In this document: positions 4,301 through 44,431 of the stretch, piece by piece
How positions within the stretch are numbered: position 1 is the first letter of the stretch
Layout: the number at the start of each line of letters is the position of its first letter
Assembly (NCBI GenBank): GCA_050084515.1
Contig: CM114271.1
Location: 28,520,001-28,584,000, forward strand
From: Blasia pusilla
Taxonomy: Eukaryota
Length of the DNA stretch: 64,000 nt
Direction: 5' to 3'
Position numbers and translations under genes: made by a program
The notes under the pieces: generated by a model
Database searches by the model: none
The model's input: the letters and a program-made list of their open reading frames with translations, nothing else
What the model was told of the DNA's origin: nothing

Positions 4301-5387
4301 GTCCATTACCATCCCATATGAAGAAGTAAAGGTTCCACATCCAGCTAAATTTGGTTCCTTCAATCGCTCTTCTGAACTCTTGATCTCTCATCCTCCAGAA
4401 AGTATCCAGCGCCTCCAAGTCCTCTTCCGTCACCAGCGCTTGAGTTCCATGTTCATCGTAAGGCCGAACAAAGAACGGAGGGAAGCTGTTGAGGTAGGAT
4501 GCAGTCGCTGCTGACTGTTTAAGCTTTGCAATGTCCTCCTCCGACTGAATTTTGCGGACGTACTCCATTGTCCGCAGTTGACAGAGTGGAATTCTCGGGG
4601 GGTTCTGGCCCTCCATCAGTGCCATCTGCTTAACAACCTGCCACAATGGGGACCAAGTCAATAAAATACAGTATTTTGCCAATGAATTGCATAATGAGCC
4701 TTCACATAACTCAAAATTTTCTTACCCGCTCAAAGATTGGGTTGGTGTCCATGCCTGCCAACTGCTCTAGGATAGCAGCTGGCAAGTCCAAGGGAAAGTC
4801 ATCGATCCGATAAAGGTCGATTTCTTCCACATGGCTCAAAGACGACGAAGACTCTTCTCTTGCTTCTTCAAAGATGTCCACCATCTCCACACTTGCTGTC
4901 CTTATGACCTCATCGTCCGTCACTTGAACTTCGGCTGTTTCCTCAGCTGATTTTAGATTCATGGTGTTTCTCCGATGAATCTAAAATCTAAAATGCACCT
5001 CATCGGAGACATTTCCTGCATCTCAACACTCTCTGTTGGATGGGCAGGGCTTTCTTCAATGGCGATTGCTTTTTCCCTTCGAGCTTTCGCCAATTCTGCT
5101 CTCCTCACAGAGGCGTCAAGACGCTTCTTCTCGCGTTTTTCATCTGCGACTCTTTTCTTCAAGGCCTTTGATGCCTCAGCCTCGGCGTTTTGCTTAGCGA
5201 GCTCCTCTAGAACACGTTTTGCTATAACCTTCTGCCTGTGCATATCTGCTTCCCTTTCCCGCTCCTATATTCCTTGTTGCCTTATCTCATTCGTCGAACG
5301 AGGACCTGGAGTTGGTGACGCAGGAGTCCTGATGGACTTGGGAGTGATGCTTCCTACCTTGGTTGCTTGTGTTTTCTTTCTCGTCAT
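4301..5387 (-). pseudogene. Accessory gene of copy 1, 5' part: charged N-terminus plus first part of a ParB/Srx-like domain
   Basis: ATG at 5387 (MTRKKTQATK). Predicted intron 4725-4638 (GTAAG...CAG). Exon 2 reads RIPLCQLRTMEYVRKIQSEEDIAKLK..SY...FFV...LYFFIWDGN and is truncated at 4301. Confidence 0.75.
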
Positions 5388-5785
5388 GGTGCACGTTGGG
5401 TCAATTCTTCTTCCTCGATAGTCTAATCTGCTCCTATGCATGATAGCTCCCTCGAATCGTTTCGTGATGAAGCGTCGTGATCCTAAACCCAACTCTCTTA
5501 GAGTTTCGTGATGAAGCGCCCTGACCCTCTAGTGGATGGGCTTGTCGAAGTTGGATGCTGGATTTTTGAAGCCTTCCAGCCAAGTGGTGATGTAACCGAG
5601 TTTGGCAGCAGAAAGATAACGTCATTTGCTGTGAGGAAGAGCACATGAAATCACGAAATGAAAAACGGAGATGATCGAAACCTCAGCCTTTTATACTTTT
5701 TGAGCCGTTGAGCTGACCGATGGATCGTTGGGTCGTACCGACGGCGACGTGTTGGCCGTTATGGAACTTTGCACGTAGGAACTCA

Positions 5786-6140
5786 GGCAACCCATCGGTC
5801 TCCGACGGGTTGCACGCTTCCCTCGTCTTGGGGATGCAAGGCGAGTTACCGAGGCAACCTGTCCGAGATCGACGGGTTGCACGTATCCCTCATCCTCGGG
5901 TTGCATGCGTACAATCCGTCGGTCTCCGACGGGTTGCATGCTTCCCCCATCTTGGGGTAACAAGGCGAGGTACCCGCGCAACCTGTCGGAGACCGACGGG
6001 TTGCACTCTTCCCCCGTCTTGGGATAACAAGACAAGGTACCCGGGCAACCCATCGGAGACCGACGGATTGTACGCTTCCCTCATCTTGGGGTAACAAGGT
6101 GAGGTACCCGGGCAACCCCTTGGAGACCGACAGGTTGCAC
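5786..6140. repeat. Tandem array (about 65-bp units) of a 27-bp palindrome in the copy 1 intergenic region
   Basis: Repeated units of GCAACCCRTCGGNNNCCGACGGGTTGCAC-GCTTCCCTCRTCTTGGG. Confidence 0.9.
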
Positions 6141-6773
6141 GCTTTCCTCGTCCTCGGGTAACCATACGACAAAGCATCGTCCTGAGGCAAGCCGTTGCCC
6201 TTCGACGAGTTACAAGGTCTACCTTGGGTTGGACACTTCCCATCATAGGGAAAAACTGCACTCACGGTTTGCACGGTTCATTGGACAAGAGAAATCAACG
6301 CGAGATCCAAAAGGGAAAGCGAGGTTAGGTGCCTTTCAAACCCATCGTAGTCCCCAACGGGTTGCCGTAGCAAATCCATGCAATGTCTCCTGTCTCGATG
6401 TTAGCAAATCCCGACTCCAATCACACAGGTTAGACAGGCACGGGGTACCAACCCAACGGACTCCGACGGGTTGCAAGTTGCTCTCGGACTCTTATAGATG
6501 ATGGTACTCTGTGGCTTTGCAACGCACGTGTCTGAGTCCCAAATTTTGCAACCCGTCGGACTCCAACAGGTTGCAACAGGATTGAATTCATTCCGTTAGA
6601 CAATCTTACCTACCAAACAACATCTTGTCTGTCGAATTCTGTCAGGACCAAACGGTCTGCTATCACTATTCACTATAAATTAAACATTTTCATTTTCATT
6701 CCCATTCCCATTCTCATTCTTATTCTTATTCTCATTCTCATTCTCATTCTCCACCCGGTGGAATCATCTGGGA

Positions 6774-7531
6774 ATGGATAATTATGTGAAACTCACTTGT
6801 GGTAGTCATCTAGCGGCCCTTCCTCAATCAAGAATAGTTTGACAGCAAGCTCGTGAATCTTTCATACCAGTGGATAAAAATTTCCTCTTAGTGTGATTTC
6901 TTCTCCAAATTGGAACAATCTTTGTTTCCAAGGATGTTAGGGTGGACAGTACGGAGGACATTGTAGGTGAGACAGTCCAGCCAGTGATAGCAGACCGTAA
7001 AGTTTGGAATCTCCTACCCCTAAAAAATGGTCAATACAGAGTTTATGGCTTGCCTCTGAATTCCTCTGTTTCCCAAGTAGACGGTCCAGAATTTCCTAGT
7101 GCACCGAGCTCTACGTTTGCCACTCCAAGCTTAGTAGACTTCACACGTTTGTAACAATGTTGTACTTCTTGAAGACATTTCGGATGTCGTCAACTTCACT
7201 GGAACTGTCGCACACCAACCGGGTCCTCTATCCGCCTACTTGTTCCTCTTGCGAGTATTAGGCAATAGTTTGTTGTCATCTCTGCCCTTTAAAATGTTCA
7301 AGCACATTCTTGTCGAAGAGTTGCCGCCCACGTACGATGGTAATTGCATTTTTGAGTTGCCTCCACTTGCTGGTCTTGCTCAAAAGAAAGATGGAGGACG
7401 CTTGAAGGGTATGGACAAAAAGTATGATTGTCATCGATGGTGCATGCTTCAACGGACTAGTGCTTCAATTCCAAATGGTCCTTGGATTGTTTCTCGCCGC
7501 CAATGCGTTGGAGCCGTGGAGTGTAGAAGTC
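6774..7531 (+). pseudogene. MULE-like transposase of copy 1, 5' part
   Basis: ATG at 6774 (MDNYVKLTCGSHL, as in copy 2). TATAAA at about 6674 and an (ATTCTC)n leader precede it. Contains stops and a deletion, and is cut by the insertion. Confidence 0.88.
7523..7531 (+). other. Left 9-bp target-site duplication GTAGAAGTC
   Basis: Identical 9-mer at 18990-18998. The 9-mer is single at the equivalent position of copy 2's own uninterrupted transposase (GTGTAGAAGTCCAGC near 15384-15398). Confidence 0.95.
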
Positions 7532-9988
7532 GGGGGCTGGTATTCTGGCAAGAGAGAGGAAGAGAGGAGAGTCTCTCTTCAAAAAAAAGGGCCAAATCCG
7601 CCTCCTCTCTTCAAAACTTTTTGACATATTTGAAATTTTTGTTTGCTTTCAAATTCATGAAATCTTTAGAAGAGAGTAGGTAGTGGTCCACGTTCGGGCC
7701 TAAAGAAACCTCCTTTTTTCAGGGGGCGAAAAACTAGTAGACATCATAAGACCACTACAAAAATTTTCCCATCACTCGATCTACATGTGAGCCCAAGTTT
7801 TTTCACATTGCCTGTCTCAGTCTACAGTAAGCTATGCCCAGGGCTATTTTTTTCGGAGGACCATTGGCAAATAATGTGACCAGAAGTAGCAATCTCATCT
7901 CAACACAGGAGACGATAATTAAACCAAAAGATTGTTAGCTATCTGGAGTAAAGAGAAATCGATGTCCCTTTGTTCAGATCCTAAATCTGATAAACTGAGA
8001 TGTTGCACCCCTCCCAATCCGTCGGAATTTTACAGGTTCCAACTCTTGCAACCCGTCAGAATCAGATGGCTTGCACCCCTTGCAAGCAAGCTCACCATAA
8101 CAAAGCAAAGATTTTGAGAAGTGATTCCATTTCACCCTGCACCCATGAAAATTCAACTGTTTGGGATTCCGAAATGGCAATCCGACAGGTTATAGGAATC
8201 CAACACGTCTTAGAGAAGAAAAGAAGCCTAAGACTGGTTTGACGATACTAGGGGAACGAGCCAAAAGTGAAGAAGCCCGCCACAATGCCTCAGAATTTGG
8301 TCTACCAGGGAAAGAGTCCGACCACTCAAGCAGCCAACCTGTCGAAATCCGACAGCTTGCCTGGAAATGGTTGAAAAGTTGCAGTGGTCAAAAAGTGAAA
8401 AGTTGAAACCCGTCGGAATCACACGGGTTGCAAAATAAACATTCTGAGTAGCTAGACGAACACAATCCACAAGTCCAAAAATATTTTCTGCAAACTTTTA
8501 CAAACACCATTATCGGTTGAAAAAATCTCGTCCTTTATTACCTCCGAAGGAACCTCGGAAATGTACATTTGATCTAGTCTATGATTTCTTCAGCCTCATC
8601 ATCCACAAATTTACTCCTAACTCTCCTAGGTTCCTGTACAAAAGGAATGTCCTGGGATACAAGTGGCTCCTCTGGCCGATTGTAGACGGGGATTGAAAAT
8701 ATTGGCGAATTCGAGAGCCTTGGCCCCCCCCTAGGTACCCCATAACGGTCCCATGTAACCTGATTTGAGTCCCACCGCCTTCCTCGGCAGTATATGTTGT
8801 ACGCTCTGCAATGTGACACCCATCCAGTATCAATATGTGCTCCGTCCTTGGAAATACCATGATGGCAATCCCACAGGTAGTAGGAATCCAACACGTCTGA
8901 GAGAAAAGAAGAAGCCTACGCCTTGTTTGACGATACTAGGGGAAGGTGCCAAAGTAAAGAATCCCGCCAGAATGCCTCTAAAGTTGGACCAACACGGAAA
9001 GAGTCCGATCACTCACGCAGCCAACCTGTCGGAATCCGACAGGTTTCCTGGAAGTGGTTAAAAAATAGAATTCCTCGGAGTACATAGATGATCACATTCG
9101 AAAAGACATAAAAGATATTCAGCAAACTTTTAGAAACACCACCATCGTTCGAAAAAATCTTGTCCTTTATTACATCCGAAAGAAGCTCGGAACTGTACAT
9201 TTGATCTTTTCTATGATTTTTTTTGCCCTCGTCATCAAATAAATCCCTACTCCAAACGCTGCAGTCAAGCTGGGTCCTTGAGTTCTTTGAACTCACTCGT
9301 CATTGTCCGATAGCTCTCGCAAAATTACTGTCGGCCTTGCCCTCCCGATTTTTGGAATTGTGGGAAGTGACAATGGTGTCACTACCAGTGGTGGGTCTAG
9401 AACCGGAGCTCTCGGCTTCGGAGGAGAGTTGTACGCCCCAACTAGCCTGTCGTAATCTGCCTTTGCCTCCTTGCAAAGGTCAAACAGTTGCTGCCTTCCC
9501 TCAAGGCAGAGAATGTTCCTACCACTATGCCAGGCGCCTCTGATACTCGCCCCTGAAAGGCCCACTAAGTCGGACATCAGGTCACCCGACCTTGAGCAGA
9601 GCTTGATGAGCGTTTGCATCAGGGCTGGCGACTTTTCCCTTCCTCCAAGTAAGGGGGTACCGTCTTGCATGTAAATTCCCGAGGGGGGAGCGGGGAATTG
9701 TATAAACTATCTAAGGTGTACCCATCGGAGCATGGATCCACAGGATCCATGATCTTAAAAACCTGGAAGTTGTGCTCGGGCCAAACAAAGCAGTAAACAT
9801 AGGAGTGGTCCATCTGTAAGGATGCACGTTGGAAACAATGTCAGCACCAAGAAAGAGCTACTTGACCACTGGTCTACTTTCAGTATGGTGACATAATGTG
9901 CAACACGTCCCCAAAGAACTTCTCTTAACCCCAGAGAACTTCGCTATAATCTTAACATTGGAGCAACCTGTCGGAGTCCGACGGGTTG

Positions 9989-10347
9989 TTTTTGTCCATG
10001 AGCAACCCGTCGGAAGGTGACAGGTTGCTGGCTTAGAGCAGCCCATGGTTGGCTGAGAGCAACCCGTCGCTTTCCGACGGGTTGCATCATTCCAGAAACA
10101 TAGGGAAAATGCATTACCACCTGCAACCCGTCCGGTCGAGGGGGCCCCATAAAAAGCATGCATGAAGGGAATCAAACTCGCAATAGGACCCCCTGCGAGT
10201 TCCGACGGGTTGCAGGTGGTAATGCGTTTTCCCTGTGTTTCTAGAATGATGCAACCCGTTGGAAAGCGACGGCTTGCTCTCAGCCAACCATGGGCTGCTC
10301 TAAGCCAGCAACCTGTCGCCTTTCGATGGGTTGCTCATGGACAAAAA
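9989..10347. repeat. Long inverted repeat (about 160-bp arms, about 40-nt spacer) inside an intron
   Basis: TTTTTGTCCATGAGCAACCC...CATTACCACCTGCAACCCGTC is mirrored by GACGGGTTGCAGGTGGTAATG...GGTTGCTCATGGACAAAAA. Confidence 0.93.
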
Positions 10348-12769
10348 GAATCCGTCGGAGAAATACAATCTAGAGACAGGAATAGAGCCTTACCCGAATT
10401 TGACTCGTCGCAGATTGGAGTGGGTACTCGTTCTTGATGATCCACGATTGCGCCGTCCTCCACTTCAGCGACCTCTTGACCCACTGGAGGTTGAAAAGCT
10501 TGTCCTCGCTCCCTCCAGTCAAAACTAAGAAACAGCCCCTGTCATTGAGATAAGCGTCTGCAAAGGAAACAGGAGTGCGATCTGGTCATAAGAAAGGGGG
10601 ACATTCAAGTCTGGGACCCCGTCGGACGGATTCTCGTCCCACAAGCGCAACCCCGAGGGCAAATCAGCGACCAGCAGATCCACCGCTACCTCTTCGACCA
10701 CCCCATGGACCGTCCAGGGAGCGTGCCCGTTTTGTTGAAGCTTCCGTCCCAGCGTTGTCAATTTCTCGATGGCGGATGTCGACGCTTGGGAACTGAAACT
10801 TTTCAGCTCATCCAGTAGATTCGTGTGGTGAAGGATGACGCTTGTTCAGGTCATTGTTTCTCTATGTCTTCCCAAGGATGATGGACTGTATTCCACATCC
10901 TGGTCTGCTCCCTGGGACAACCCCGGCGCCTCTTCCTTCCGCTTCTCTCGAGTCTGCGGTTGGCTTGTTGGGGTCTCTATGACCTCAGACTCTGGTGGAG
11001 TTTTTTTTGCGGAGGACCTGGTCCGACCCTCTCTCCCCGCTCGCCCGGACGATTCCGGCTCTTGCCTTGAATTTTTAGCCTCTCTTTGGGAAGACTCGGC
11101 CTCGGAATTCTTCAATCCCCTTGCCTTGGCTTTGAGACCCGCTGTAGATTTGTCCTTGGGTGTGACAACCTTGGACTCCAACTCCGTTGTCTCAGGGCTT
11201 GGTCTTCCGCATCTCCTTCGAAAAAGTCTTCAGGTTGCACAAAATTGGGGATGTCGTCCCTACCTGCGGCCACTGCATCATAAAGCAGGCGTAGATCTTT
11301 CTCGGTTATGTTCTCAGGGTCGTTCAAGTCCAGCCAAATCCTCCTAAACAATAAAAATATTTACATGAGGAGGGACGTTCGGGCAATTCTCCACCTCCCA
11401 ATCGGACATGCTTTGAGCCATCTCCGTGTCGTATATGGAAAATGTCTCTCCATCACGCAGAGAAGCCCACAATTTTCAGGCTGCCGGTTATTTTTGCCAT
11501 GTACCTGCATTCTTACAATGGACGAGGTACCTGAACACCATGCGTTGGGCAGCTCTTAGTCGAGATGCATCGTCCGCCTGCTCCTGAAGATCTCGCTTCT
11601 TCTTTGCGAGATCCCTTTTTTTCGCCTCGATTTCTTCGTCAAGGTCTGCCTGAGGGAGGATGCGATCCTTGGACATCGTCCTGAAACCTGGGTTTTTTAT
11701 GGGCTTGTCCCGGATGTCATCCAACCAAAGTTCAAAATCATCAGCACTCTCCAGGTTTGCTTCCTCCGGAAGTGGCTCTATTCTTTTCAGCTCCGCTTGG
11801 AGACCCACGAGCATGGACTTCCCGAAAAGCCGCAACGCGTCCCAGAATGACCATTCCCGGATCCAGTGGGAGATCACTGGAACTGAGACACCTGGAGGAT
11901 GGTGTGCCGCCCTCTTTTGGGCCTATGTGCCCTCGAGACTGATTTTCATTAGTTGTATTCTCCTAAATTTGCTTATTCCAGACAAGGCAAATCGATGCAC
12001 GCGATCGAGAGACACATTCTCCCCAATCCGACCTTACGGATCTTCATCCCTTTTCCTCTGGCGCTTGATTATCGCCTTCAGCTCCTTGTAGAAATCAGGA
12101 CAAAGTTCCGGGTTGAGAATGGCGATGTAGCACTGCATCTTGCTTGCCGTGTACTTTGTAGCTGCAGATACTGCAGCTTGGATGAATTTTGCACGCTCAG
12201 ACACAGACACTTTCTCCCTCCAATGCAGCGCTCTTCTTGGCGGCCTGTATCTTCGACCAGCAAAGGATTGTGACGCCTGCATCTTGGGAAATAAATTTAT
12301 TTGCCCAAGTCTTCTTTTTGATTTGTGCACCCTTTGCCAGCATCTCATTTACAAGGGCATCGCCCAAGAACCCCTTGTACTCTGCCGGGTGCGTCGTTAG
12401 CACTTTCTTCACCCGATCGCAATCCTGGATCCAGCGGCGGGTGACAGTCCCCTCCGATAAAATCTTGCACATCCAAACTCAATATAAGAAATTTTGTAAG
12501 GTACATGGGTTCCAACAACCCGTCGGACTCCGACATGTCGTCACAGCTCATGGTTGGATTGTAGCAACGAGCTAAATTTTGCAAGCCATTGGAGTCTGAC
12601 GGATTGCATTCAGATTTGTGATTGCCTGGTTTCAACCCGTCGGACTCCAACGGGTTGTCAGATAGTCCGTATTTACATAGTGGTTACCGCGAGAAAAGTG
12701 AACATATCAACCCGTCGGAGCCGACAAGTTGCGCGATTTCAATGAAAGCTGCACTTTGACGCCAAAAAT

Positions 12770-13250
12770 GTAGCTCCCAACTTCCGAATGCAACCTGTCG
12801 GACTTTGACCAGTTGCTTTCGGCCAAAAAGATCCAAAAACAGCTTCGAGTCAAGCAACCCGTCGGACTCCGACGAGTTGCTTTCTTCAAAAAACATCCAA
12901 AAAATGCGGCGAGTCGAGCAACTCGTCGGACTCCGAAGAGTTGCTTTCTTCAAAATACATCCAAAGAATGCGGCCAGTCGAGCAACTCGTCGGACTCCGA
13001 CGAGTTGCTTTGGGCCAAAAACATCCTAAACCTGTGGTCAGTCGAACAACTCGTCGGACTCTGACGAGTTGCTTTCGGCCAAAAACATTCTAAACCAATG
13101 ATCAGTCGAGCAACTCGTCGGAGTCCGACGAGTTGCTTTCCGCCAAAAAAATCCTAAACCAGTGATCAGTCGAGCAACTCGTCGGAGTCAACGAGTTGCT
13201 TTCGGCCAAAAACATCCCAAAAAACTTGTCGGAGTTCGACGGTTTGCAGC
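12770..13250. repeat. About 59-bp tandem array carrying the palindrome variant GCAACTCGTCGGACTCCGACGAGTTGC, intronic
   Basis: About 8 consecutive units of CAGTCGAGCAACTCGTCGGA(C/G)TCCGACGAGTTGCTTTCGGCCAAAAACATCC. Confidence 0.92.
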
Positions 13251-13731
13251 AAGAGGAAACTTACGTGTTCATGGCATGCATGGCCATCTCCACCGTCGCC
13301 ATGTGATGAGGGTATGGATGTAGCACCACTGCCTTCACGGAAAAATGTGCCTCCAATGAGTTTGGGCGCTCCTCTTCAAAGTGGGTCCACGCCATGAACC
13401 TATGATTTCCATCCCAGATGAAGAAATACAGGTTCCTCATCCAGCTGAATTCCGTCCCCTCTATCGCCCTTCTGAATTCTTTTTGTCGGCGATCCTTTTC
13501 TTCAAAGCGTGCGAGGCCTCTCCCTCTGCGTTCTGTCTTTTGAGCGCCTCATTTACACGTTTTGCAAGAAGCTCATGCTTGTGCATCTCCGCTTCCCTTT
13601 CCCGCTCCTCGATTTCTTGCTGCCTTATCTCATTGGTCGAACGAGGCCCTGGACATGGTGACGCAGGAGTCCTCATGGACTTGGGAGTGAAGCTCCCAGC
13701 CTTGTTTGCGTGAGATTTTTTTCCTCGTCAT

Positions 13732-14622
13732 TTTTCCCAAAAATGCCTCCTCCTATGTGCACGATGAATCGCTTGATGAGTCGCCTTGCTGATGTCGAGA
13801 TGAGTTGCCTTGATGGGTAGCTCGAATCGTCTTGCGATCGTTCACTCGAATCGTCTTGCGATGACTCGCCGTGTTAAGCACCCCTTGGTATCTGGTCAGC
13901 TGCTGCGCGGGAGAGCAATTGAGATCGCGAAATGAAAAACCGGAAATGAGCGATTTCTCCCCTATTTATACTTTTCGAGCCGTTGGACTGACCGTTGGGT
14001 CGCATCGTCCTTCCGACAGCGACGTGCCTTGACGTGAAAAAAACCAACCCGACGGCTTCGACAGGTTGCACGCTTTTGGAGGGTTCAAGGCATCCGTCCT
14101 TGTGGCAACCCGTCCGAGATGGACAGGTTGCGCGCCTCCGCCATCCTGGGCCGAGAACACGAGGTGCCCGAGAAACCCGTTGGAGACCGTTGGGTTGCAC
14201 GCTTCCCTCGTCTTGGGATAACAACGCAGGCTTCACAAGATGTATCCTGAGTTGGACAATCCCGCAAAAGTCCCCAAAAATTGGTTGCCCTAGCATTAGC
14301 AAGTGATATCTTGTGTTTGATGCTAGCAAAATCGCCTCAGAAGATCTTCGGTCGGCAAGAAGGGGGTACCTACCCAACAGACTCTGACAGGTTCCAACAA
14401 AATGAAGTGTGCTTCGCAACCCACGTCTCTGATTCCCAAATTTTGTAACCCACCTGACTCTGATAGGTTGCAGCAGAATTGAATCCATTGTGTCAGACAT
14501 TTTCACCTACCAAACTTCATCTTGTCAGTCAGATTCTGTAAGGAGAATCTGAGTTCCTATTCACTATAAATTAAACATTCTCATTCTCATTCTCATTCTC
14601 CTCCTGGTGGAATCTTCTGGGA
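13732..14622. promoter_or_regulatory. Putative bidirectional promoter region between the two divergent genes
   Basis: TATAAA at about 14565 (+) and TATAAATA at about 13963-13970 (-). Matching TATA boxes are conserved in copy 1 (about 6674 and about 5690). Palindromes lie between them. Confidence 0.55.
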
Positions 14623-17600
14623 ATGGATAATTATGTGAAGCTCACTTGTGGTAGTCATCTAGTGGCCCTTCCTCAATCAAAAATCGTTCGACCACAAGCT
14701 CGTGAGTCTTTCATAGCAGTGGATGAAAATTTTCTCTCTGTTCGATTTCTTCTCCAAATTGGAACCATCTTTGTATCCAAGGATGTTAGGATGGACGGTA
14801 CGGAGGACATAATAGGTGAGACACTCCATCCAGTGATTGCAGACCGTAAAGTATGGAATCTGCTACCTCTAGCAAATGGTCAATATAGAGTTTACGGCTT
14901 ACCCCTGAATTCCTCTGTTTCCCAAGTAGACGGTCGAGAATTTCCTAGTGCACCGAGCTCTACGTTTGCAACTCCTAGCTCAGTAGATCCGGCTTCGACT
15001 CCAACTTCACACGCTCGTAACAATGTTGTTCTTCTTGAAGAGATTCCGGATGTTATCAACCTCAGTGGATCTGTCAGACACCAACCGGGCCCTCTGTCCG
15101 CCTACTCGTTCCTCTTGCGAGTATCAGGCAATAGTTTGCTATCGTCTCTGGCCTTGAAAATGTTCAAGCACATTCTTGTCGACGAGATTCTGCCCACGTA
15201 CGATGGTAATTGCATTTTTGAGTTGCCTCCACTTGCGCTCTGCTCAAAAGAAAGATGGAGGGCGTCGAAGGGTATGGGACGAAAGTCTAATTGTCATCGA
15301 TGGTGCGAGCTTCAGCGGACTAGTGCTTCAATTCCAGATGGTCCTTGGATTGTCTCCCGCCGCCAATGCGTTGGAGCCTTGGAGTGTAGAAGTCCAGCAT
15401 GCCCGTATGTAGAGCGCAACGGGCGAGTCAATACATCGCAATTTCACCCCAAGAATGCAGAAACTCCATACGAGGTCGGTGCCACCATACCGCCGGGAGG
15501 CCATCGATGTCTGATTGTCGCATCGCCACGATTGGACCGTGTCTGCATACATATTTTTCATTGTCCACGACTTGGGCTCCACGTCGAGTACACAAGGTGG
15601 CAGTTCATGTTGGCTCCCACACTCATCCTGTGACCGATGCAATTCACAGACACATCAAGGAGGATGTGGCGAAGAAAGTTGCCGAGGTCTACAGAAACTC
15701 TCCGGGTTCAAAGCCTGGACTGATCAAGCTCACAACAACATCAAAAATTTGTGAACAATTGCTTGGAATCCCTAGACAGGGCAAGATCACGGCGGCTGAG
15801 GAGAAACAACTCTGGGAAAATCTCGCATTTCTCGCTGATCCTAAATGCTTCCAGAATTTGCTGCGTCAAATACGGGTTCTGGATGGAAAGACGGCCGAAA
15901 TGGATGTCATCGCCAGAATCAAGGCCAACTCCAGATTTCCATTCATTCAGAGATGGCAGTTCATGGGCCAAGGAGGCGAGGGATCCAGGGCCTATGTCTT
16001 CAAAATATCAACCACAGGTCCGTCGAGTGGCCTCGATCTTATAGATCAAATGAAGGAAGGGGAAGATCTTTACGACAGCTGGGTAAGCTTTGATATTTGC
16101 TACAGAGTGCTGAGCGGATGGTTGACAATGGGTGCTCATGTTTATGACCATGTGGAGAAGGGACTCAAAACTATATTTGTCTGTGAAGTAAAAGCAGAAG
16201 ACGTTGGCAGTTTGAAGATGTGCTGGTTACTCTTATTGGAGGTGGTGAAGGAAAACACAAGGCCAACTCCGGAAATTTATGGGTTCATGGCGGACAATGC
16301 ACAACCTGGGTGGATTGCTATCTGGGAAGTGTTTTGGGATGGAGAGGTTCAACCGGAGAGGGAAAGGTCGGATGCTTTCCATTGCATCAAGGAGAATAAG
16401 AGGACAGAGCATGTCACTCTACTCCAACGCTGCAAGGACAACAAAACCTTGAAACAGGCCATGGAATACCAAGAAGAACTTCATGGCTGGTGGAGGAAGC
16501 ATGCGATTGAGGGGAAGTACAAAGAGTTGTGCTCTTGGTTGAGTTGGTGGGCTGTACGTATGAGACAATGGGGAAACTTCATGCGGCAGGTGAGTTCACT
16601 ATTTTGTCTTGTCAAGCTCACGCTGAGAATTGTTTGTAAAGTTGCAGCTCAAGTTGAGAAGCGTGGGAACTATAGGGATTTCAAACCGAAGAAACCAAGC
16701 AAGTTGTCGGATGCGACGGGTTGCCCGAGTGTGCAACCCGTCGGAAACGGACGGGTTTCCTGAGTGTGCAACCAGTCGAAAACCGGCGGGTTGCATCCAG
16801 AATTTTGGTGCAACCCGTATACAAGTATCCAAGTCGCATGTATACAAGGCCTGCAAATAGTTCGACCCGGATGGGTTTCGGATGACTTGCACTTGGATCT
16901 TCCATCCCGGAGTGGCCAAAGGTTCTTGCAACCCGTCGGAATCCAACGGATTGCAGTAGGTGGGTTTAGGGTTGCAACACGTCGGGACCCGACGGGTCGC
17001 AGAGTCGTTTATGGGATGCCTCGGCCTTGCAACCCGTTTGGTTCCGACAGGTAGCTTATTTCTTTGACTCCTGAGCTATTTTCGTTCCCTTCTAACATTG
17101 CCGTCGTTGCAGGGATTGAACATTCATGAAAATGTCCTCTGCCCCAACACAAGTGGAGCAGAAAGTGTTCATTCCTCTTGGAGGTCGTTACAAGCATGCC
17201 AACGAATTTTACTTGTGGAGGCATGCCAAGAAGACCAGGCAAGAGCAATGCTACAGTCTGCAGCATCCCATATCTTCCTCACAAAAGGCATAACAAAAGG
17301 AAGGGGGCCTTCGATCTACGAGCTCTATGTCAGGGCGGCTGTGAGATCTGGTGATGAAAAACTCTATGTGGAAGCCTTCAACCGGTGCGTAGCTGGAACT
17401 CCCCTTGAGCAAGACGTACACATTGGTGGGGATATTCATGGGCGGGTTTCAAGACGTCCCATACAGATGGTGGTAGAGCAGTCCGAGCGAGACTCGTGGA
17501 GACCACATAAGTATATTGACTTCAGGCAGGTGAAGAGGCAGCAACGAGGAACGAATCCGGTGATTGATTTGGATGAGGAAATTACGCCGCCCAGGTTTTC

Positions 17601-18597
17601 GGGGACCCCGGACCGCTCCCAAATCCGTGATGGAGTAACTTCTCCCTCCGTTGCTGGAAGTTCGCAACATCCGATCGGTGGGGTGGTTCAACAATATGGG
17701 ATTCCGGTAATGGAGGTGGATTGCAACCTAAATCGGTGGCATATATCTCGGAGCAACCCAAGACGTGGACCCACCTGCAGGGTAGGATCTGATGGCATTA
17801 GGAGAGCATGCGGCACTTTCCTAAATAAGAATTGTACAAGGACTGGACGACCACTGGCTGGGTTTTGGGGACTCAAAACCTTTGATCGTTTCACGAGGAC
17901 CGGGGATCAATTGAAGTACTTCTTCTGCCCAAATAAATCTTGCGCTTTCCGAAAGTCTTATCCAGCTGCCATTAGAGCTCCAGGGAATACCCCCACCATT
18001 TGGCCCATCGCCGTAGGTACGAACTGCACTCAAGACGAAGTGGACAATCTTACAAGTGCCGGTTTCAGACTCGTAGACGGGGGAAGTTCGGAGCATGTTC
18101 GTATTACAGAGACCTTCGCATTTCGTATTCAACCCAAGATTGATGTCAATATGTACCCGAAGAAAGTGGATGATCTCAATCCACTATTTCTGTTTGAGTC
18201 TAGAAATGGGGTGAAGAGAAACAGAATGTGTAGGCCAACGGTGGAGAGAGCAAAGCGAATTGCATCAGCTCGGGAGGCAAAAATGGAGATCATCGCCACA
18301 AAAGATGTCCTACGTGGCAATGGAATAGGAAGGATGTATTGGGTCAGGAACAACACTGTAAATTCAAGTGTCATAGGAGTGTATTTGGTGCACATCTGTT
18401 GCTTTCCCACATGTTCATGTGATAACTTTGTCCAAAGAGAGACAAGTCGCAAAAGGTATTTCCCTTGTAAGCACATGTACTATGTGTTGTTGGTAGTTTT
18501 AAGAGAGTCGGAGGTAGGAGTAGGAATCCACCAACCAATTCTGTCCCTCAAAGAAGTGCTATTATTTTTAACAAACCATTTTGAGGATGCAAAATGA
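14623..18597 (+). pseudogene. Mutator-like (MULE) transposase with GCM/WRKY-like Zn finger and C-terminal SWIM finger; exons 14623-16589 and 17113-18597
   Basis: Zn motif CVGALECRSPACP...HVGSHTHP. DDE-like motifs WVSFDICYR / GFMADNA / SDAFH / TSGAESVHSSW. SWIM motif CSCDNF..PCKHMYYV. Intron GTGAGT(16590)...TGCAG(17112). Has frameshifts and an 11-codon deletion relative to copy 1. Confidence 0.88.
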
Positions 18598-18989
18598 GGT
18601 TTTAGATTGTATTCATTTTTCAAGAATTGTACTTTCATTTTTCACTTCAGCTTGAACTCTATTCAGCCCAGGGCAAATGATAGATTATTTCCAGACCTTG
18701 GATGGAAAAAGTGATTGGTTCCACACTTATGATTCCACTTATTTTTCAGTTTTGTAAATTTTGTGCAATTTGCAACCGGTCGGACTCAGATGGGTTGCCA
18801 AAATATGGAAGAGAAAAAAAAAACTATGGGACTGCTTAATAACTGAGCAAAAAAGTACAAAAAAATTCACAAAAAAAATTTCCTCTCTTCAACCCAACGG
18901 AAACTCTCTTAAAAAAAAAGTATCTATTCCGGTTGAAGGTAGTTTCCTCTCTCCTCTCTTCCTCTCTTCCTCTCCTCTTACCGCACCTC

Positions 18990-18998
18990 GTAGAAGTC
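18990..18998 (+). other. Right 9-bp target-site duplication GTAGAAGTC
   Basis: Matches 7523-7531 exactly. Confidence 0.95.
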
Positions 18999-21900
18999 CA
19001 GCATGCCCGTATCTTGAGCGCAATGGGCGAGTCAATACGTCGCAATTCCCCCCTAAGAATGCAAAAACTCCATATGAGGTCAGTGAGACCATACCGCCAA
19101 GAGGCCATCGATGTCCTCATTGTCAGGCATCCTCTTTCTGCGTTGGAGCGTGTCCTGAATACATATTTTTCATTGTCCACGACTTCAGTTCTACTTCGGA
19201 GTATACAAGGCTGGAAGTTCAGGTTGGCTCCCACATTTATCTTGTTATCGGTGCAATTCAGAGACATATCAAGGAGGATGTGGCAAAGAAAGTGGTCGAG
19301 GTATATGGATACTCTGTGGGATCAAAGCCCGGAGTGATCAAGTTAACAACAGCATCTCAAATTTGTGAACAATTGCTTGGAATCCTTGGGCAGGGCGAGA
19401 TCACGGTTGCTGAGGAGAAACAACTCTGGGAAAATCTCACATTTCTCGCTGATCCTAAATGCTTCCAGAAGTTGCTACGTCAAATACGGATATTGGATGG
19501 AAAGATGGCCGAAATGTATACCATTGCTAGAATCAAGGCCAACTCCAGATTTCCATTTATTCAGAGATGGCAGTTCATGGGCCAGGGAGGCAAAGGATTA
19601 AGGGCTTATGTCTTCAAAATGTCAACAACAGGGCCCTCGAGTGGCCTCGATCTTATAGATCGAATGAAGGAAGGGGAAGATCTTTACGGCAGCTGGGTAG
19701 GCTTTGATATTTGCTACAGAGTGCTGAATGGATGGTTGACCATGGATGCTCACGTTTATGACCATGTCAAGAAGGGACTCAAAACTATATTTGTCTGTGA
19801 GGTAAAAGCAGAAGACGTTGGTAGTTTGAAGATGTGTTGGTTACTCTTATTGGAGGTGGTGAAGGAAAACAAAAGGCCACCTCCGAAAATTTATGGATGC
19901 ATGGCGGAAAATGCACAACCTGGGTGGATTGCTATCAGGGAAGTGTTCTCGGGTGGAGAGGTTCAACTAGAGAGGGGAAGGTCGGATGCTTTCCATTGGC
20001 AACAGTCTGTGACCCGGTATACCAAATCTTGCATCAAGGAGAAAAAGAGGACAGAGCATGTCACTCTACTCCAACGCTGCAAGGACAGCAAAACCTTGAA
20101 ACAGGCCATGGAATACCAAGAAGAATTTCATGGGTGGTGGAGGAAGCAAGCGATTGGCTCAATTGGTGGACTGTACGAATGAGACAATGGCGAAACGTCA
20201 TGCGGCAGGTGAGTTCAGTATTTCGTCTTGTCGAGCTCATGTTGAGAATTTTTTGAAAAGTTGCAGCTCAAGTTGAGAGTCGTGGGCACTAAAGGGATTT
20301 CAAACGGAAGAAACCAAGCAACCCGTCGGATGCGACGGGTTTTCTGAGTGTGCAACCCGTCGGAAACCGACGGGTTTCGTGAGTGTGCAACCAGTCAAAA
20401 ACCGACGGGTTGCATTAAGAATTTTTGTATTACCCGTCGGAGCACGACATCATGCACGAGGAATGTTTGTGCAACCCGTCGGAATCCGATTGGTTGCATG
20501 AGTGTGCAACCTGTCGAGTCCCGACGGGTTGCAAGTTGCATATATACAAGGCCTGCAAATTGTTTGACTCAGATGGGTTGCAAGCCGCAAGGCTGCGAGT
20601 CCGTCAGATTCCGACAAGTTGCATCTGTCAGCAACATGTGGGATTCCGACTAGTTGCGTCTGTATGCAACTCCTTGCATTCAGACAGGTTGCGGTTGTCT
20701 CCAAGTCGCATCCACACATGTTTTATCAGTTCAAGTTAATTGGAACCCGTCAAATTTCAATAGTTGCAAAGCTTCGTGTGTGGACACTTCTTGCAAGCCA
20801 ACGGAATCCGACAGGTCGCACAAGAATTTTCGAGACTGGACCGGCCTGCTTCTCACAACCCGTCTGATTCCGACGGGTTGTAGTACAACCTTTGAGTGCT
20901 AGGTTGCAGTAAAAGGTTACATGGATATTCCAGGGATGTCTCCGACTTGCAACCCGTTTCAAGTCGGAGGCTGGAAAATCCATGTGCGGTTTGTCGGATT
21001 CCGATGACTTGCACTTGGATCTTCCAGTCTAGAGTGGCCAAAGTTACTTGCAACCAGTTTGAATCCCACGGGTTGCAGTAGGTGGTTCCTGGGTGTTGCA
21101 ACATGTCGGAAACCGACGGATCGTAGAGTCATTCATGGGATGCCTCCGACTTGCAACCTGTCTAGTTCCGACAAGTAGCTTTTTTCTTTGCTCATAGACG
21201 TTCCCTTCTTACATTGTCGTCGTTGCACGGATTGAACATTCATGAAAATGCCCTCTGCCCCAACACAAGTGGAGCAGAAAGTGTTCATTCCTCTTGGAGG
21301 TCGTCACAAGCATATCAAAGAATTTCACTTGTGGAGGCATGCCAACAAGACCAGGCAAGAGCAATGCTACAGTCTGCAGCATCCCATATCTTCCTCACAA
21401 AAGGCATAATAAAAGGAAGGGGTCTTTGATTTACGAGCTCTATGTTAGGGCGGCTATGAGATCTGGTGATGAGAAACTGTATATGGAAGCCTTCAATCGG
21501 TGCGTAGCAAGAACTCCCCTCGAGCAAGATGTACACATTGGTGGGGATATTTGTGGGTGTGTTTCAAGACGTCCCATACAGATGGTGGTAGAGCAGTCCG
21601 AGCAAGACTTGTGGAGACCAGATAAGTATCTTGACTTCAGGCAAGTGAAGAGGCAGCATCGAGGAACGAACCCTGTGATTGATTTGGATGAAGAAATTAC
21701 GCCGCCCAGGTATTTGGAGACCCTAGATTGCTCCAAAATCTATGATGTAGTAACTTCTCCAAAATGAGTGAATATTTTATTTCAAAAGCCCTCCGTTGCT
21801 AGAAGTTTCCAACATCCAGTCGCTGGGGTGGTTCAACAGTATGGGATTCCGTTCATTGAGGTGGATTGCAACCTCAAAAGATGGCATATATCTCAGAGCA

Positions 21901-22724
21901 ACCCTGGACGTCGACCCACTTGCAGGGCAGGATCTGATGGCATTAGGAGAGCATGCGGCACTTTCCTAAATAAGAACTGTACAAGGACTGGACGACCACT
22001 ACCTCGATTTTGGGGACTCAAAACCTTTGATTGTTTCACGAGGATCGGGGATCAATTGAAGTACTTCTTCTGCCCAAATGACTCCTGCGCTTTCTGAAAG
22101 TCTTATCCAGCTGCCATTGGAGCTCCAGGGAATACCCCCCCAGTCTGGCCCATTGCCAAAGGTACAAATTGCACTCAAGAGGAAGTGGACTCAAGTTCCG
22201 GTTTCAGACTCGTAGACGGAGAAAGTTCGGAGCACGTTCGCATTACAGAGACCTTTGTATTTCGGAATCAACCCAAGATTGATGTCAATATGTACCTAGA
22301 GAAGGTGGATGATCTCAATCCACTATTTCTGTTTGAGTCTAGAAATGGGATGAAGAGAAACAGAATGTGTAGGCCAACGGCGGAGAGAGCGAAGCGAATC
22401 GCATCAGCTCGGGAGGCAAACATGAAAATCATCGCCACAAAAGATGTCTAGAGTGGGAATGGAATAGGAAGGATGTATTGGGTGAGGAACAACACTACAA
22501 ATTCAAGTGTCATAGGGGTGTATGTGGTGCACATCTGTTGCTTTCCCACATGTTCCTGTGATGACTTTGTCCAAAGAGAGACAAGTGGGAAAAGGTATTT
22601 TCCTTGTAAGCACATGTACTATGTGTTGCTTGTAGTTTTAAGAGAGTTGGAGGTAAGAGTAGGAATCCACCAACCAATTCTTTCCCTCAGAGAAGTGCAA
22701 AGTATTTTAAACAAACCACTTTGA
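18990..22724 (+). pseudogene. MULE-like transposase of copy 1, 3' part (DDE plus SWIM)
   Basis: Paralogous to 15386-18597. Intron 20209-21228 has a mutated acceptor (CAC). Multiple stops. Confidence 0.9.
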
Positions 22725-23112
22725 GGATGCAAAATGAGGTTCTTCACTTTGAGCTTGAACTCTATTCAGCCCAGGGAAAATGATAGATGTTTTCCAGACC
22801 TTGGATGGAAAAGTGATTTGTTCCACATTTATGATTCCAATGATTTTTCTATTTTTTAAATTTTATGAAAATTGCAACCCGTCGAATTTTGACGGGTTAC
22901 CAAAATGTGGAAGAGGAAAAAAAATGTGTGGGAGTGCCTAAGCACTGAGAATAAAAGTGCAAAAAAATTCACACAAAAATTTTCCTCTCTTCAACCCAAC
23001 AGAAACTCTCTTCAAATCACAGGAAACTCTCTTCAAAAAAATGTATCTCTTTCGGTTGAAGGTAGTTTCCTCTCTCCTCTCTTCCTCTCTTCCTCTCCTC
23101 TTACCGCTCCTC

Positions 23113-30225: not shown

Positions 30226-31909
30226 TTACACTCGAGACCCCTTCCCAAGTTTCGTCTCAAACAGCCGTTGCAATAAATATACTTGCAAAAAACTGCAGGC
30301 CATGATAGCCACTGACTCCAGCAAAGCTTTGTATATAACTCTTTTACTCATTGTTTCATTCACTGCACCAAGTCAACACAACGGTGCTTAAAATCAGGAC
30401 ATGGCTATACTTCAAGTTTTGATTCCAGACTACTATTTCACCGAATCAAATAACATGGGGGTAGCAATAATACGAGATTGGAGTTTGGAAGCATACTGAT
30501 GGCTTGATGATCAGTTTGGGCGGAAAGCCAGTGCTGCTCAAATCGAACTGAATAGAGAGACTCCTCTAGTCTGGCGATCTGTATCATCAACGGATCAAAA
30601 TGTTCTGTACCAAACAGTTTAATCAAGGGTATCAGAAGGCCACATTGGCAGTGGAGTACGAGCACCGAGATACCGTATCTTCCCCAAACACTCTGGGCTG
30701 GCGCGATCTACCTGAACGGAGATACATGAGAGAAACGCACAAAAGAAAAATCTCCGTAGATTTGCAAATTACTCGGCCTTGAAAGAAATTCCTCCCAATA
30801 GACACGAAACAGACGAGCAGACGTATGATCCCCGTGAAAGAAATTCCTCCCAATAGACACGAAACAACCTTTACAACTATATTATGCTGCGTCTATGCGC
30901 AAAAAGTTTTCCATTCGGTGCTAGCAATATAAACACCAAATTTCATGAGTGGGTAGATAGGTTAGCCAAACTATATTTCTCATGCCGAGTACTCCCAAAG
31001 CACCTGATGCTGTGATGATTTTGAGATCACATTGAATACAACTCCTAGGCTCTATCGATACCCCAGACTACAACCCCTTCTGTTACCTGCCAGTTGGCCT
31101 TTTAATGCCAATATGACAAGCGAAGTCCTGAACTGGAAAACCGTATAGACCAAAGGATGAAGTAGCACCATACCAGGTTTGGCACGTTCTTCTCGAGTGG
31201 GAATGTGCCCAACACGGACATCGAAATCGATCGTTTCATGCATAGGAGAGATGTTGCTGAAGCAAAACTTGTAAAATCCTCTAATATTTGCCTCAAAGTC
31301 AAATTTGTCTTCATCCTTTTGCTTTCCAGAGTAGATCAGACGTCCCTTGGGCGACTCCACCTGCATCGGAGTCCCGGCCCACACAGAGCCATCCCATTGA
31401 AATGCAACCTTCAATACCTCTCTGGAGAACTCCATTCTACCTTCACATAAATGGGACAGACAGATCCCGTATCTCTCGAAATTGTATTTCAAAGATTCCA
31501 GTAGATTTCCGAACCAGATGAGGGTCGCCACAAACAGAATTACCAAAAAAAGTGGACAAGTCACAGACATTTACACCCTAATCACACTACTCAACTTCTT
31601 CTCTCTCGCAAACTCTACTTTCAATCGAGACCTCTGAAGCGACCAGTGGCGTCGGTTGAAAGATTCTCTATTTGAAACCCATTAATTGAAAAGTTTACGT
31701 ACCGTCAGATCGACCCCAAGACGATTGAAAGTCCAAGGATTATCAGATTTTATGACAACAAAAGAGACATCAACTTTATCATATTCGTACTGAACTTCGT
31801 GAGAAAAGCACTCCTTCCTGTCAAGAACAAATCGCACTGCCTGCACCTGGACTAACACCATCCACAAAGCCAGCGCCAGGGACAGAACAAGATTCAAATC
31901 CTTTCCCAT
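30226..31909 (-). CDS. Transmembrane emp24/p24 family protein, p24beta2-like (212 aa); exons 31909-31703, 31360-31174, 30604-30497, 30362-30226
   Basis: Signal peptide, then a GOLD domain (VRFVLDRKECFSHEVQYE, YKFCFSNISPMHETIDFDV), coiled coil (EHFDPL..FEQHWL), TM helix and C-terminal LFETKLGKGSRV*. All introns are GT-AG with consistent phases (639 nt). Confidence 0.96.
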
Positions 31910-33310: not shown

Positions 33311-33687
33311 GGCTGAGGAGAGATGGATGCGAGTGACACCCATGCCGTCACGTCCACGAGATGGACCATTGCCTACAGGGTCTCTACAGGCATTGGCTGG
33401 GGGCAAGACAAGGAGAGATAGGCACCCATGGACTTCCTGGGACATCATTCGAGCGGAGAGTGCGAAGGCGGCCAGAGTAGCACATGTTCATTTTTTGGAT
33501 GTGGAGCATGGTGGAGGAGGTCATAGTGGAGTGGCTCTTGCGGAGGTGGCTAGGGTTGCTACATAACAACCAAAGCCGGAGGTGGCATCCTCTCTGAGTG
33601 AGGTCACGATGGAGACTTGGGAGCCTGTGATAGGACTCAAGTTGACAGGAGGAGAGCCATGGCGAGTTCATAGGTTTCTGAGAGGGC

Positions 33688-44038: not shown

Positions 44039-44431
44039 TGTTAGATAAATACATTTTAGATAAAGGTGTTCGACTTAAAATGTGTTAAAGGAACTACCTA
44101 AATGCTGCTACTCTTAGCAGTCCGACATCTAAGCTAAAAGGGTCACTTGGCCACTTGGTCAGCTGGCCACTTGGCCACTTAGTCACTTGGCTACTTGGCC
44201 ACTTGGTCACTTGGTCACTTGGCCACTTGGTCAGTTGGCTAGTTGGCCACTTGGTCACTTGGTCACTTGGTCACTTTGCCACTCAGACTATTTTGTCTCT
44301 AGCCAATATCCAGATTAGTATATAATCTGGGGCTTGAATAAACATCAGGTTTGAAGTTCTCCATTAAGCTTAGTCGCAGCTTTACCATTGTATCATTACC
44401 ATTGTGTCTACATCTCTCATATAGTTTAACA
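44039..44431 (+). repeat. Solo LTR of family B (393 bp) inserted in element B pol, with 5-bp TSD ATCCA
   Basis: TGTTAG...TAACA, flanked by ATCCA at 44034-44038 and 44432-44436. Internal 9-bp tandem repeat of CACTTGG(C/T)-type units. Confidence 0.93.

Follow-up and report, generated by a model that had tools for sequence, protein, structure and literature searches.

A probable accessory gene of a Mutator-like transposon in Blasia pusilla, related to beta-class DNA methyltransferases

Described systems and the locus in Blasia pusilla

Interest in the bacterial-type amino-methyltransferases of eukaryotes stems from two cases, those of bdelloid rotifers and Marchantia, in which N4-methylcytosine (4mC) is written as an epigenetic mark. 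The rotifer enzyme, N4CMT, carries a C-terminal chromodomain (PMC8885841; PDB 8s9m-8s9o), and the Marchantia enzymes, MpDN4MT1a/b, bear a TSPPY motif (10.1101/2021.02.12.428880). Here we analyse a methylase-like gene on the minus strand of a 64,000-nucleotide stretch of the Blasia pusilla genome (GCA_050084515.1, contig CM114271.1, positions 28,520,001 to 28,584,000), hereafter the window, in whose numbering all coordinates are given. We consider it probable that the gene, here in a decayed copy, is accessory to a Mutator-like transposon; it derives from the PF01555 family of methyltransferases and is likely to be non-catalytic. A preliminary description, made from the letters of the window, had recognised a beta-class methyltransferase-like domain and set it beside the eukaryotic 4mC enzymes. 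The two have in common a PF01555-type domain in a eukaryote, and N4CMT chains do appear among the PDB matches of the family (E 0.04-0.2). N4CMT and MpDN4MT1, however, occur singly or in tandem as genes of the host, with intact catalytic motifs and proven activity, whereas the window family is multi-copy, transposon-borne and motif-degenerate. The window gene has no TSPPY-type motif, and Pfam scans of the window pieces and their relatives found no chromodomain.

The nearest precedent would, by analogy, be PAG2, a PF01555+SET accessory gene of the giant Plavaka (EnSpm/CACTA) transposons of red algae, which is described as occurring with Mutator, Zisupton and Fanzor-encoding elements too (10.1101/2025.02.11.637652). 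In both cases a PF01555-type domain forms an accessory gene of a cut-and-paste DNA transposon, and tandem inverted-repeat arrays adjoin the accessory genes in a described Plavaka element as well (10.1101/2025.02.11.637652). The comparison is one of descriptions only, and it has its limits: the PF01555 domain of PAG2 is recognised by InterPro and fused to SET, whereas Pfam scans found no SET domain at E<=10 in the window pieces or in three of their relatives (P0002, P0003 and P0004, introduced below). The window gene differs further in its degenerate motifs, in having a land plant as its host and in being carried by a Mutator-like element (MULE).

Plant MULEs are themselves described as carrying varied accessory proteins, among them MURB of maize MuDR and VANB and VANC of Arabidopsis VANDAL (PMC12973397). 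The window gene resembles these as a second gene beside the transposase of a MULE, with an expected partner or anti-silencing role on the repeats of the element, a likeness of gene arrangement that carries no demonstrated sequence relation. The arrangement is not the same in detail, as the two genes of the window element run outward from its middle, whereas those of MuDR converge from the ends. A further parallel is offered by the DIRS and DAM-LTR retrotransposons (LTR, long terminal repeat), whose Dam-type domain has a conserved Asn-Pro-Pro triplet and was inactive in heterologous tests; DAM-LTR elements are reported to be absent from Streptophyta (10.64898/2026.05.21.726589). There, too, a prokaryote-type adenine-methylase domain was co-opted by eukaryotic mobile elements, but it belongs to the Dam family and sits in retrotransposons, whereas the window has a PF01555-type domain in a DNA transposon. 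Our literature search found no report of PF01555 in a land-plant transposon, nor of the Ceratodon family described below; Table S6 of PMC12973397, which gives the Pfam domains in active plant transposons with terminal inverted repeats, lay outside that search and may bear on the matter.

Kinship to beta-class methyltransferases and loss of their motifs

As judged from sequence comparisons, the resemblance of the gene to beta-class amino-methyltransferases is beyond chance. Both strings on which the preliminary description had relied, VDLLVADLPSG at 10683-10651 and the stretch from EKSPALMQ to NILCLE at 9637-9500, read exactly so on the minus strand, the latter within the stop-to-stop open reading frame (ORF) 9293-9706. 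In a tblastn search of 50,697 phage records with 129 residues of this 3' ORF, 100 records matched at E<=1 (best E 2e-4), and annotated DNA methylase or methyltransferase genes stand in all 20 of the phage rows listed. Against the PF01555 profile, the search that the preliminary description had proposed, the ORF alone found the right family at its C-terminal end (positions 165-220 of 221, E=0.092), at a score of 13.1 bits that falls short of the Pfam gathering cut-off of 26.7 bits. A phmmer search among 1.84 billion representatives returned five proteins at E<=0.001, three of which (P0002, P0003 and P0004) were judged true relatives. These match PF01555 at the same profile end as the ORF itself, with E-values from 1.8e-4 to 0.022 and scores of 22.0, 15.7 and 15.2 bits, all under the cut-off; three PF01555-confirmed phage enzymes, taken as positive controls, scored 86.8-146.2 bits. 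The other two phmmer matches, P0001 and P0005, are long internal-repeat proteins and were excluded by eye. P0001 was the top-scoring match of all (E 1.8e-25, 22 matched stretches); its 1449 residues consist of one short unit many times over, and it was treated as a repeat artefact on the evidence of its own sequence.

Beyond two metagenome fragments, the only relatives found belong to the moss Ceratodon purpureus, which has four such proteins, all annotated as hypothetical. The Ceratodon proteins, KAG0605740 and KAG0624017 among them, are 758-810 residues long and are encoded on chromosomes 9, 3, 1 and 6, while the metagenome relatives are one ENA protein and a small JGI cluster, one member of which is labelled 'DNA modification methylase' by its source. 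Read through its frame breaks, the window sequence is identical to the Ceratodon protein P0003 at 67 of 228 aligned positions, which span the whole domain. Conservation among the Ceratodon paralogs is highest in the methylase-like part. Of its 267 positions, P0011 shares 247 and P0012 shares 242 with P0003, compared with 104 and 101 of about 167 for the middle part. P0003 and P0006, although on different chromosomes, are identical over all aligned columns. A metagenome scan with one family alignment (A2) gave 70 pattern matches and no relative. A metagenome locus (L001) picked up in a scan with P0009 was rejected as a chance match to a membrane protein, on a contig that is bacterial by its ORFs.

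Profile comparisons point in the same direction as the phage matches. When family profiles were run against PDB sequences, beta-class DNA methyltransferases ranked first and supplied 8 of the 9 (A2) and 8 of the 12 (A4) matches at E<=10, the best of them (E 1.9e-4) being of the DpnA/M1.HpyAVI type; a profile built from the Ceratodon proteins only (A1) had 0 PDB matches. With the window sequence read through and an X placed at both frame breaks, hhalign aligned the family with the three phage enzymes at 96.6% probability over 58 columns, and a greedy full-length alignment was collinear from motif IV to the C-terminus, with VDLLVADLPSG falling on the phage IDLIATDPPY. The permuted order of motifs, IV and then X to I, which the preliminary description had read from the letters, is thus seen both in the minus-strand coordinates and in this alignment. 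By language-model features, 21 of the 30 ESM Atlas matches of the Ceratodon domain fall in the PF01555 family set, and the cluster at rank 2 (score 0.94) has PF01555 in 39% of its members. Foldseek, run on a low-confidence model of the domain, lists beta-class DNA methyltransferases at every rank from 1 to 27 (best E 5.3e-5, ~190-220 columns). Pfam scans of the window pieces and relatives gave PF01555 only, plus weak AviRa and GST_N_3 matches. Of the coding pieces of the gene (e1 to e4 in Table 1), e1 had no match in a protein search, and in six-frame ORFs of 8500-14600 a hidden Markov model of the Ceratodon proteins found e4 alone significant, with e2 second (E 0.095) and e1 fifth.

It could be argued that the resemblance is convergent or accidental and that the domain has another fold. 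Such a view would accord with the want of any match above the Pfam cut-off, with an N-terminal half that is not significant alone and with the low confidence of the structure models. We hold it to be very improbable, as phage tblastn, PDB profiles, the 96.6% hhalign alignment, language-model features and Foldseek converge on the same family and on the same part of it, and the motifs line up with those of the beta-class enzymes in their permuted order.

The beta-class PF01555 enzymes used for comparison include the M1.HpyAVI/DpnA type (PDB 5hek, 5hfj), CcrM (6pbd), M.RsrI (1eg2) and phage methylases. The window family shares with them the order IV, X, I and 33-40% identity over the ~57-68 residues of the motif X helix and the strand 1/strand 2 region. 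It differs in its long eukaryote-type N-terminal and basic region, its intron, its location in a eukaryotic transposon and its scores below the cut-off, and above all in its motifs, where D-[LA]-P-[SE]-G stands in place of [DNS]-P-P-[YFW] and the cofactor loop is without its first glycine. The canonical beta-class motif IV is [D/N/S]-P-P-[Y/F/W], and the phage controls have DPPY or DPPF. The window copy has DLPSG and the Ceratodon paralogs have DAPEG (4 of 4), so that the aspartate and one proline are kept, while the second proline position and the aromatic residue are lost in every family member seen. In six of six aligned family sequences motif I is TGAS, SGAS or TSAS, and the first glycine of the F-x-G-x-G cofactor loop is lost: the loops are DLVGLSGAS in the window, DWSA[NS]TGAS in Ceratodon, DLSASTSAS in P0002 and DLTSLTGAS in P0009, set against DPFGGSG, DTFGGSG and DFFMGSG in the phage controls. 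What the family does retain is the motif X helix, together with the acidic residue that follows strand 2. The preliminary description had cautioned that the catalytic aromatic residue is absent and motif I divergent; both points hold, and with DAPEG in all four Ceratodon paralogs they prove to be a trait of the family rather than of one copy. Its suspicion of an inactive derivative also stands, as likely inactivity: the loss of the motif IV residues and of the cofactor-loop glycine suggests a protein unable to transfer methyl groups, and the family product is probably non-catalytic. In two distant lineages the key motif residues are gone, whereas the domain itself is conserved.

An opposing view would be that the family has remained catalytically active as an amino-methyltransferase despite its unorthodox motif IV, and that the transposon uses it to mark its own DNA with N6-methyladenine or 4mC, for example at the palindromes, in order to escape or steer host silencing. 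The conservation of the methylase-like part above all others among the Ceratodon paralogs is in keeping with this, as are the motif IV aspartate and proline, the motif X helix and the acidic residue that are kept, and the PF01555 domain of red-algal PAG2 is thought to be a methylase (10.1101/2025.02.11.637652). We nevertheless regard continued activity as unlikely, given that the motif IV aromatic residue and the first cofactor-loop glycine are missing in every member seen and that the family reaches 13-22 bits against PF01555 where three phage enzymes reach 87-146 bits.

The nested transposon and its copies

The gene lies within an inserted element whose boundaries are set by its target site. 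The 64 kb contain the 9-mer GTAGAAGTC in three places: at 7523-7531, at 18990-18998 and, undivided, at 15386-15394 in a paralogous copy (B). Self-comparison of the window matches 5136-7531 (A) with 13480-15394, and 15386-18989 with 18990-23112 (C). Since the 9-mers flank 7532-18989 and the paralogous copy has the site undivided, this segment is one insertion with a 9-bp duplication, and target-site duplications of 9 bp are typical of Mutator elements. The target of the inner element was an older member of its own family, which is represented by parts A (5136-7531) and C (18990-23112) and was split within the transposase reading frame; the insertion is self-nested. The methylase-like gene is hence not a methyltransferase gene of the host: the 9-bp duplication, the ends of the element and the copy number given below make it a decayed repeat copy inside a Mutator-like transposon.

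Terminal repeats were recognised only once the target duplication had fixed the ends of the element. The right termini of the inner element and of the outer copy agree base for base, down to the last nucleotide. Between the two ends of the inner element, 7 of the first 11 nucleotides match, followed by a 19-nt exact purine-rich match with a 1-nt offset. In local alignments with the reverse complement of 18870-18989, a match of this quality was reached by 0 of 500 shuffles and by 1 of 500 random window segments; as the 19-mer is purine-rich and of low complexity, we take it as moderate evidence for inverted ends. A search of 3500-24500 for inverted repeats of at least 40 nt returned the palindrome and the intron hairpin, both described below, and nothing else.

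The second gene of the element resembles MULE transposases. Its two leading ESM Atlas matches both score 0.96, to clusters of the MULE/ZSWIM kind (PF21056 in 61% and PF10551 MULE in 49% of the members of the first, MULE in 78% of those of the second), and nine of the ten best family-bearing matches share a family or clan with the best one. The last transposase ORF has a SWIM zinc finger under the cut-off (E=0.05). A PDB search with a transposase ORF gave nothing relevant, and no reverse transcriptase or tyrosine recombinase was seen among the ORFs within 7532-18989. The element is further marked by a 27-nt palindrome, which occurs 39 times in the window, always within 5787-22900, and 0 times in 20 window shuffles. 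Its arrays lie upstream of the methylase-like gene, in the intron of that gene and in the intron of the transposase; within the first of these introns, a 156-nt inverted repeat (9977-10132 and 10204-10359, 94% complementary) is built from the same palindrome. Another palindrome array, with a period of ~67 bp, is found at 5787-6138.

Genomic reads place the gene in a large family of repeats. From an Illumina run with the same species label (X12), about 1 in 100 of the run (1,966 million letters) was compared with positions 9000-12600. On these 3.6 kb, 10,642 reads were placed, covering 30 of 30 bins; 9,520 of them were just 90-95% alike, and 70 were at least 99% alike. The computed mean depth of ~340 corresponds to roughly 170 copy-equivalents per Gb of genome, and the stretch is a high-copy repeat in the source genome. 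The window copy itself is decayed, with two in-frame stops (Table 1) and with single bases deleted that are present in other copies. In 138 of 392 reads a base is added behind 10566; this reopens the frame between e1 and e2, which then reads LLF-x-FADAYL and aligns with NLFYFASYHL of Ceratodon; extra bases are likewise present behind 11193 (67 of 97 reads) and behind 11352 (50 of 50). Position 9573 gives Ser in the window copy and the Phe of GDLMFDL in 351 of 352 first-mate-plus reads. Of 587 places at which the reads differ, 40 are listed; seven of these are majority differences in e4, two silent and five residue-changing, and none of the 40 falls within the motif IV stretch 10651-10683. Many genomic reads end abruptly at 9062-9064, from which we conclude that copies vary in a sub-repeat of ~430 bp downstream of the gene. 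The sub-repeat is a direct duplication of ~430 bp just past the stop of the gene, at 8174-8603 and 8862-9236, in two blocks of 86% and 80% identity.

Two RNA runs, of which 6 and 12 in 100 were used, gave 68 and 97 reads on the same stretch, 0 of them at least 99% alike, so that the RNA reads stem from other copies of the family. Over the 3' exon they have the direction expected of a minus-strand transcript in a usual stranded library. One of the runs (X16) has in addition a pile-up in the opposite direction at 10694-10935, with depth up to 10.5 and with loose ends at 10786 and 10917 that continue into unrelated sequence; a piece of the family of ~130 nt seems to be embedded in another transcript elsewhere in the genome.

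The preliminary description had the domain split by an intron, which is correct as far as it goes. A GT..AG segment at 10393-9814 does lie between the motifs, and once it is removed the translation is collinear with the Ceratodon domain, which makes it a candidate intron on the evidence of sequence and collinearity. Yet the intron alone fails to join the four coding pieces that span the motif region, on account of the break at 10566/10567 and of a second discontinuity near 9682, where e3 and e4 overlap by one base unless a further intron at 9762-9707 is used. The discontinuity is either a one-base break or this 56-nt intron. No insertion or deletion at 10% or more of the reads is listed near 9682, and most copies therefore share the state of the window copy, be it the intron or a common break. 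Among the RNA joints listed, none spans 10393-9814 or 9762-9707, at the thin coverage given by 68 and 97 reads. Further upstream, residues 21-117 of P0003 align by tblastn with 12126-11809 in the correct order and in a single frame across two stops (E=0.55). The coordinates of all these features are collected in Table 1.

Table 1. Coordinates of the inner element, its target site and its genes in the window
Feature	Position	Strand	Details
Left copy of 9-bp target-site duplication	7523-7531		GTAGAAGTC; final bases of outer copy A
Inner Mutator-like element, 11,458 bp	7532-18989		Methylase-like gene (minus) and MULE-like transposase (plus)
Left terminal inverted repeat, imperfect	7532-7572	+	Begins GGGGGCTGGTA; contains the 19-mer AGAGAGGAAGAGAGGAGAG
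Piece e4	9296-9682	-	Motif X and motif I region 9637-9500; stop codon 9293-9295
Second discontinuity	9682-9762	-	One-base break near 9682 (C run) or 56-nt GT..AG intron 9762-9707
Piece e3	9685-9813	-	MDHSYVYCFVW ..., begins after TTACAG
Candidate intron, 580 nt, phase 0	9814-10393	-	GT 10393-10392, AG 9815-9814
Piece e2	10394-10564	-	FADAYLNDRGCFLVL ... SQIR, then GTAAGG
Frame break e1/e2	10566-10567	-	One base missing from a T run
Piece e1	10567-10845	-	Carries motif IV-like VDLLVADLPSG, 10683-10651
Middle region, basic, low-complexity	10849-11360	-	Two frames in the window copy; extra base behind 11352 and 11193 elsewhere
Continuation of first frame	11491-12033	-	Second in-frame stop 11923-11925
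First reading frame of the gene	12037-12348	-	Weakly like the N-terminus of the Ceratodon proteins; in-frame stop 12034-12036
27-nt palindrome array	12581-13222		GCAACCCGTCGGA-N-TCCGACGGGTTGC; lies upstream of the gene and includes, at 12789-13222, tandem repeats with a period of 64 bp
MULE-like transposase gene	14575-18597	+	Long ORFs 14575-15633, 15390-16763, 17068-18597
Right terminal inverted repeat	18949-18989	-	Reverse complement begins GAGGTGCGGTA
Right copy of 9-bp target-site duplication	18990-18998		First nine bases of outer part C

Alternatively, the family could be one of host genes, a fragment of which was captured in the manner of Pack-MULEs and amplified passively, with no service to the transposon. 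MULEs are described as taking up host gene fragments (PMC6431247), the window copy is broken, and the Ceratodon relatives are annotated as ordinary hypothetical proteins, all of which would suit such a capture. We find it quite unlikely all the same. Over its full length, from a start that resembles an N-terminus down to its stop, the gene follows the 758-810-residue Ceratodon proteins collinearly and is therefore no fragment; its intron, too, is kept. Ceratodon has at least four copies, each on its own chromosome and two without a difference in any aligned column, which would suit a mobile gene better than a host family. Moreover, just three relatives were found among 1.84 billion representatives, so that no widespread host family is visible.

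Most of the window consists of transposons. Just left of the Mutator-like cluster, 1359-2954 encodes a Helitron helicase-like N-terminal domain (PF14214, E 8.4e-51), and genes of LTR retrotransposons lie at 33682-36203, 42536-45695 and 61519-62172, with RVT_1 (E 2.8e-28, 2.8e-40), rve, gag_pre-integrs and RVT_2 (E 2.6e-65) domains. An ORF at 31052-31570 on the minus strand has an emp24/GOLD domain (PF01105, E 1.4e-9) and is probably the exon of a host gene.

A proposed role for the methylase-like protein

The homology is shown, as are the setting in a transposon, the large number of copies, the decayed state of the window copy and the motif loss throughout the family, and on these we return to our reading of the gene as a decayed copy of a transposon accessory gene. 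A number of points weigh against it. No family member reaches the PF01555 cut-off, and the putative assignment of motif IV rests on position and collinearity rather than on score: the best hhalign alignment of the motif IV half alone does put motif IV on motif IV, but with P=0.029 and a probability of 1.7%. The AlphaFold2 predictions are of low confidence, with a mean predicted local distance difference test score of 28.4 for a whole Ceratodon protein and 38.1 for the domain, and are unusable as models, and the TM-scores of the Foldseek matches are only 0.2-0.3. Foldseek ranks the beta-class enzymes first, at E 5.3e-5, and on these predictions a Rossmann-type methyltransferase fold is no more than a candidate. 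The loss of catalysis is read from motifs alone, and in motif IV the aspartate and one proline remain. As regards the transposon, the ends mirror each other imperfectly and in low-complexity sequence, and the transposase is called from language-model features, a SWIM match under the threshold and the 9-bp duplication, with no Pfam match to MULE in the transposase ORFs at E<=10. The transposon setting is known from the window copy, the Ceratodon genes being known as annotated proteins only. Lastly, no methylase-like segment of the outer copy is seen in the window left of 5136; either the gene is absent from that copy, or the copy was cut there by another insertion, or that part of it falls outside the window.

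We suggest the following account of the element. Two genes point outward from a central, palindrome-rich region, one for a MULE-type transposase and the other for the methylase-like protein. The last ~270 residues of the latter derive from a bacterial or phage beta-class amino-methyltransferase (PF01555), in the permuted order of motif IV, the motif V-VIII region, X and I. This protein would no longer transfer methyl groups, and the transposon would retain it as a DNA-binding or partner protein, for which the 27-nt palindromes of the element itself are natural candidate binding sites. A role in transposition or in anti-silencing may be envisaged. Beta-class enzymes act on DNA as dimers, and possible parallels, by analogy, are the non-catalytic partner in split methyltransferases, MURB of MuDR and VANC of VANDAL.

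More tentatively, we would propose that a bryophyte-grade lineage of Mutator-like elements turned a captured methyltransferase into a pseudo-enzyme that binds the palindromes of its own element, as a transposition cofactor or an anti-silencing factor. The capture would be separate from that of the red-algal PF01555+SET gene, and the window gene would then be the first PF01555-derived transposon gene in Streptophyta. We see this fuller proposal as speculative, and as doubtful in a way that our reading of the gene as a transposon accessory is not.

For the reading of plant genomes, a PF01555-like signal need not mean a 4mC enzyme; at this locus it comes from a transposon passenger that has lost its catalytic motifs. 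A methylase domain that a mobile element conserves in spite of its dead motifs would offer a testable case of the reuse of a pseudo-enzyme for DNA recognition.

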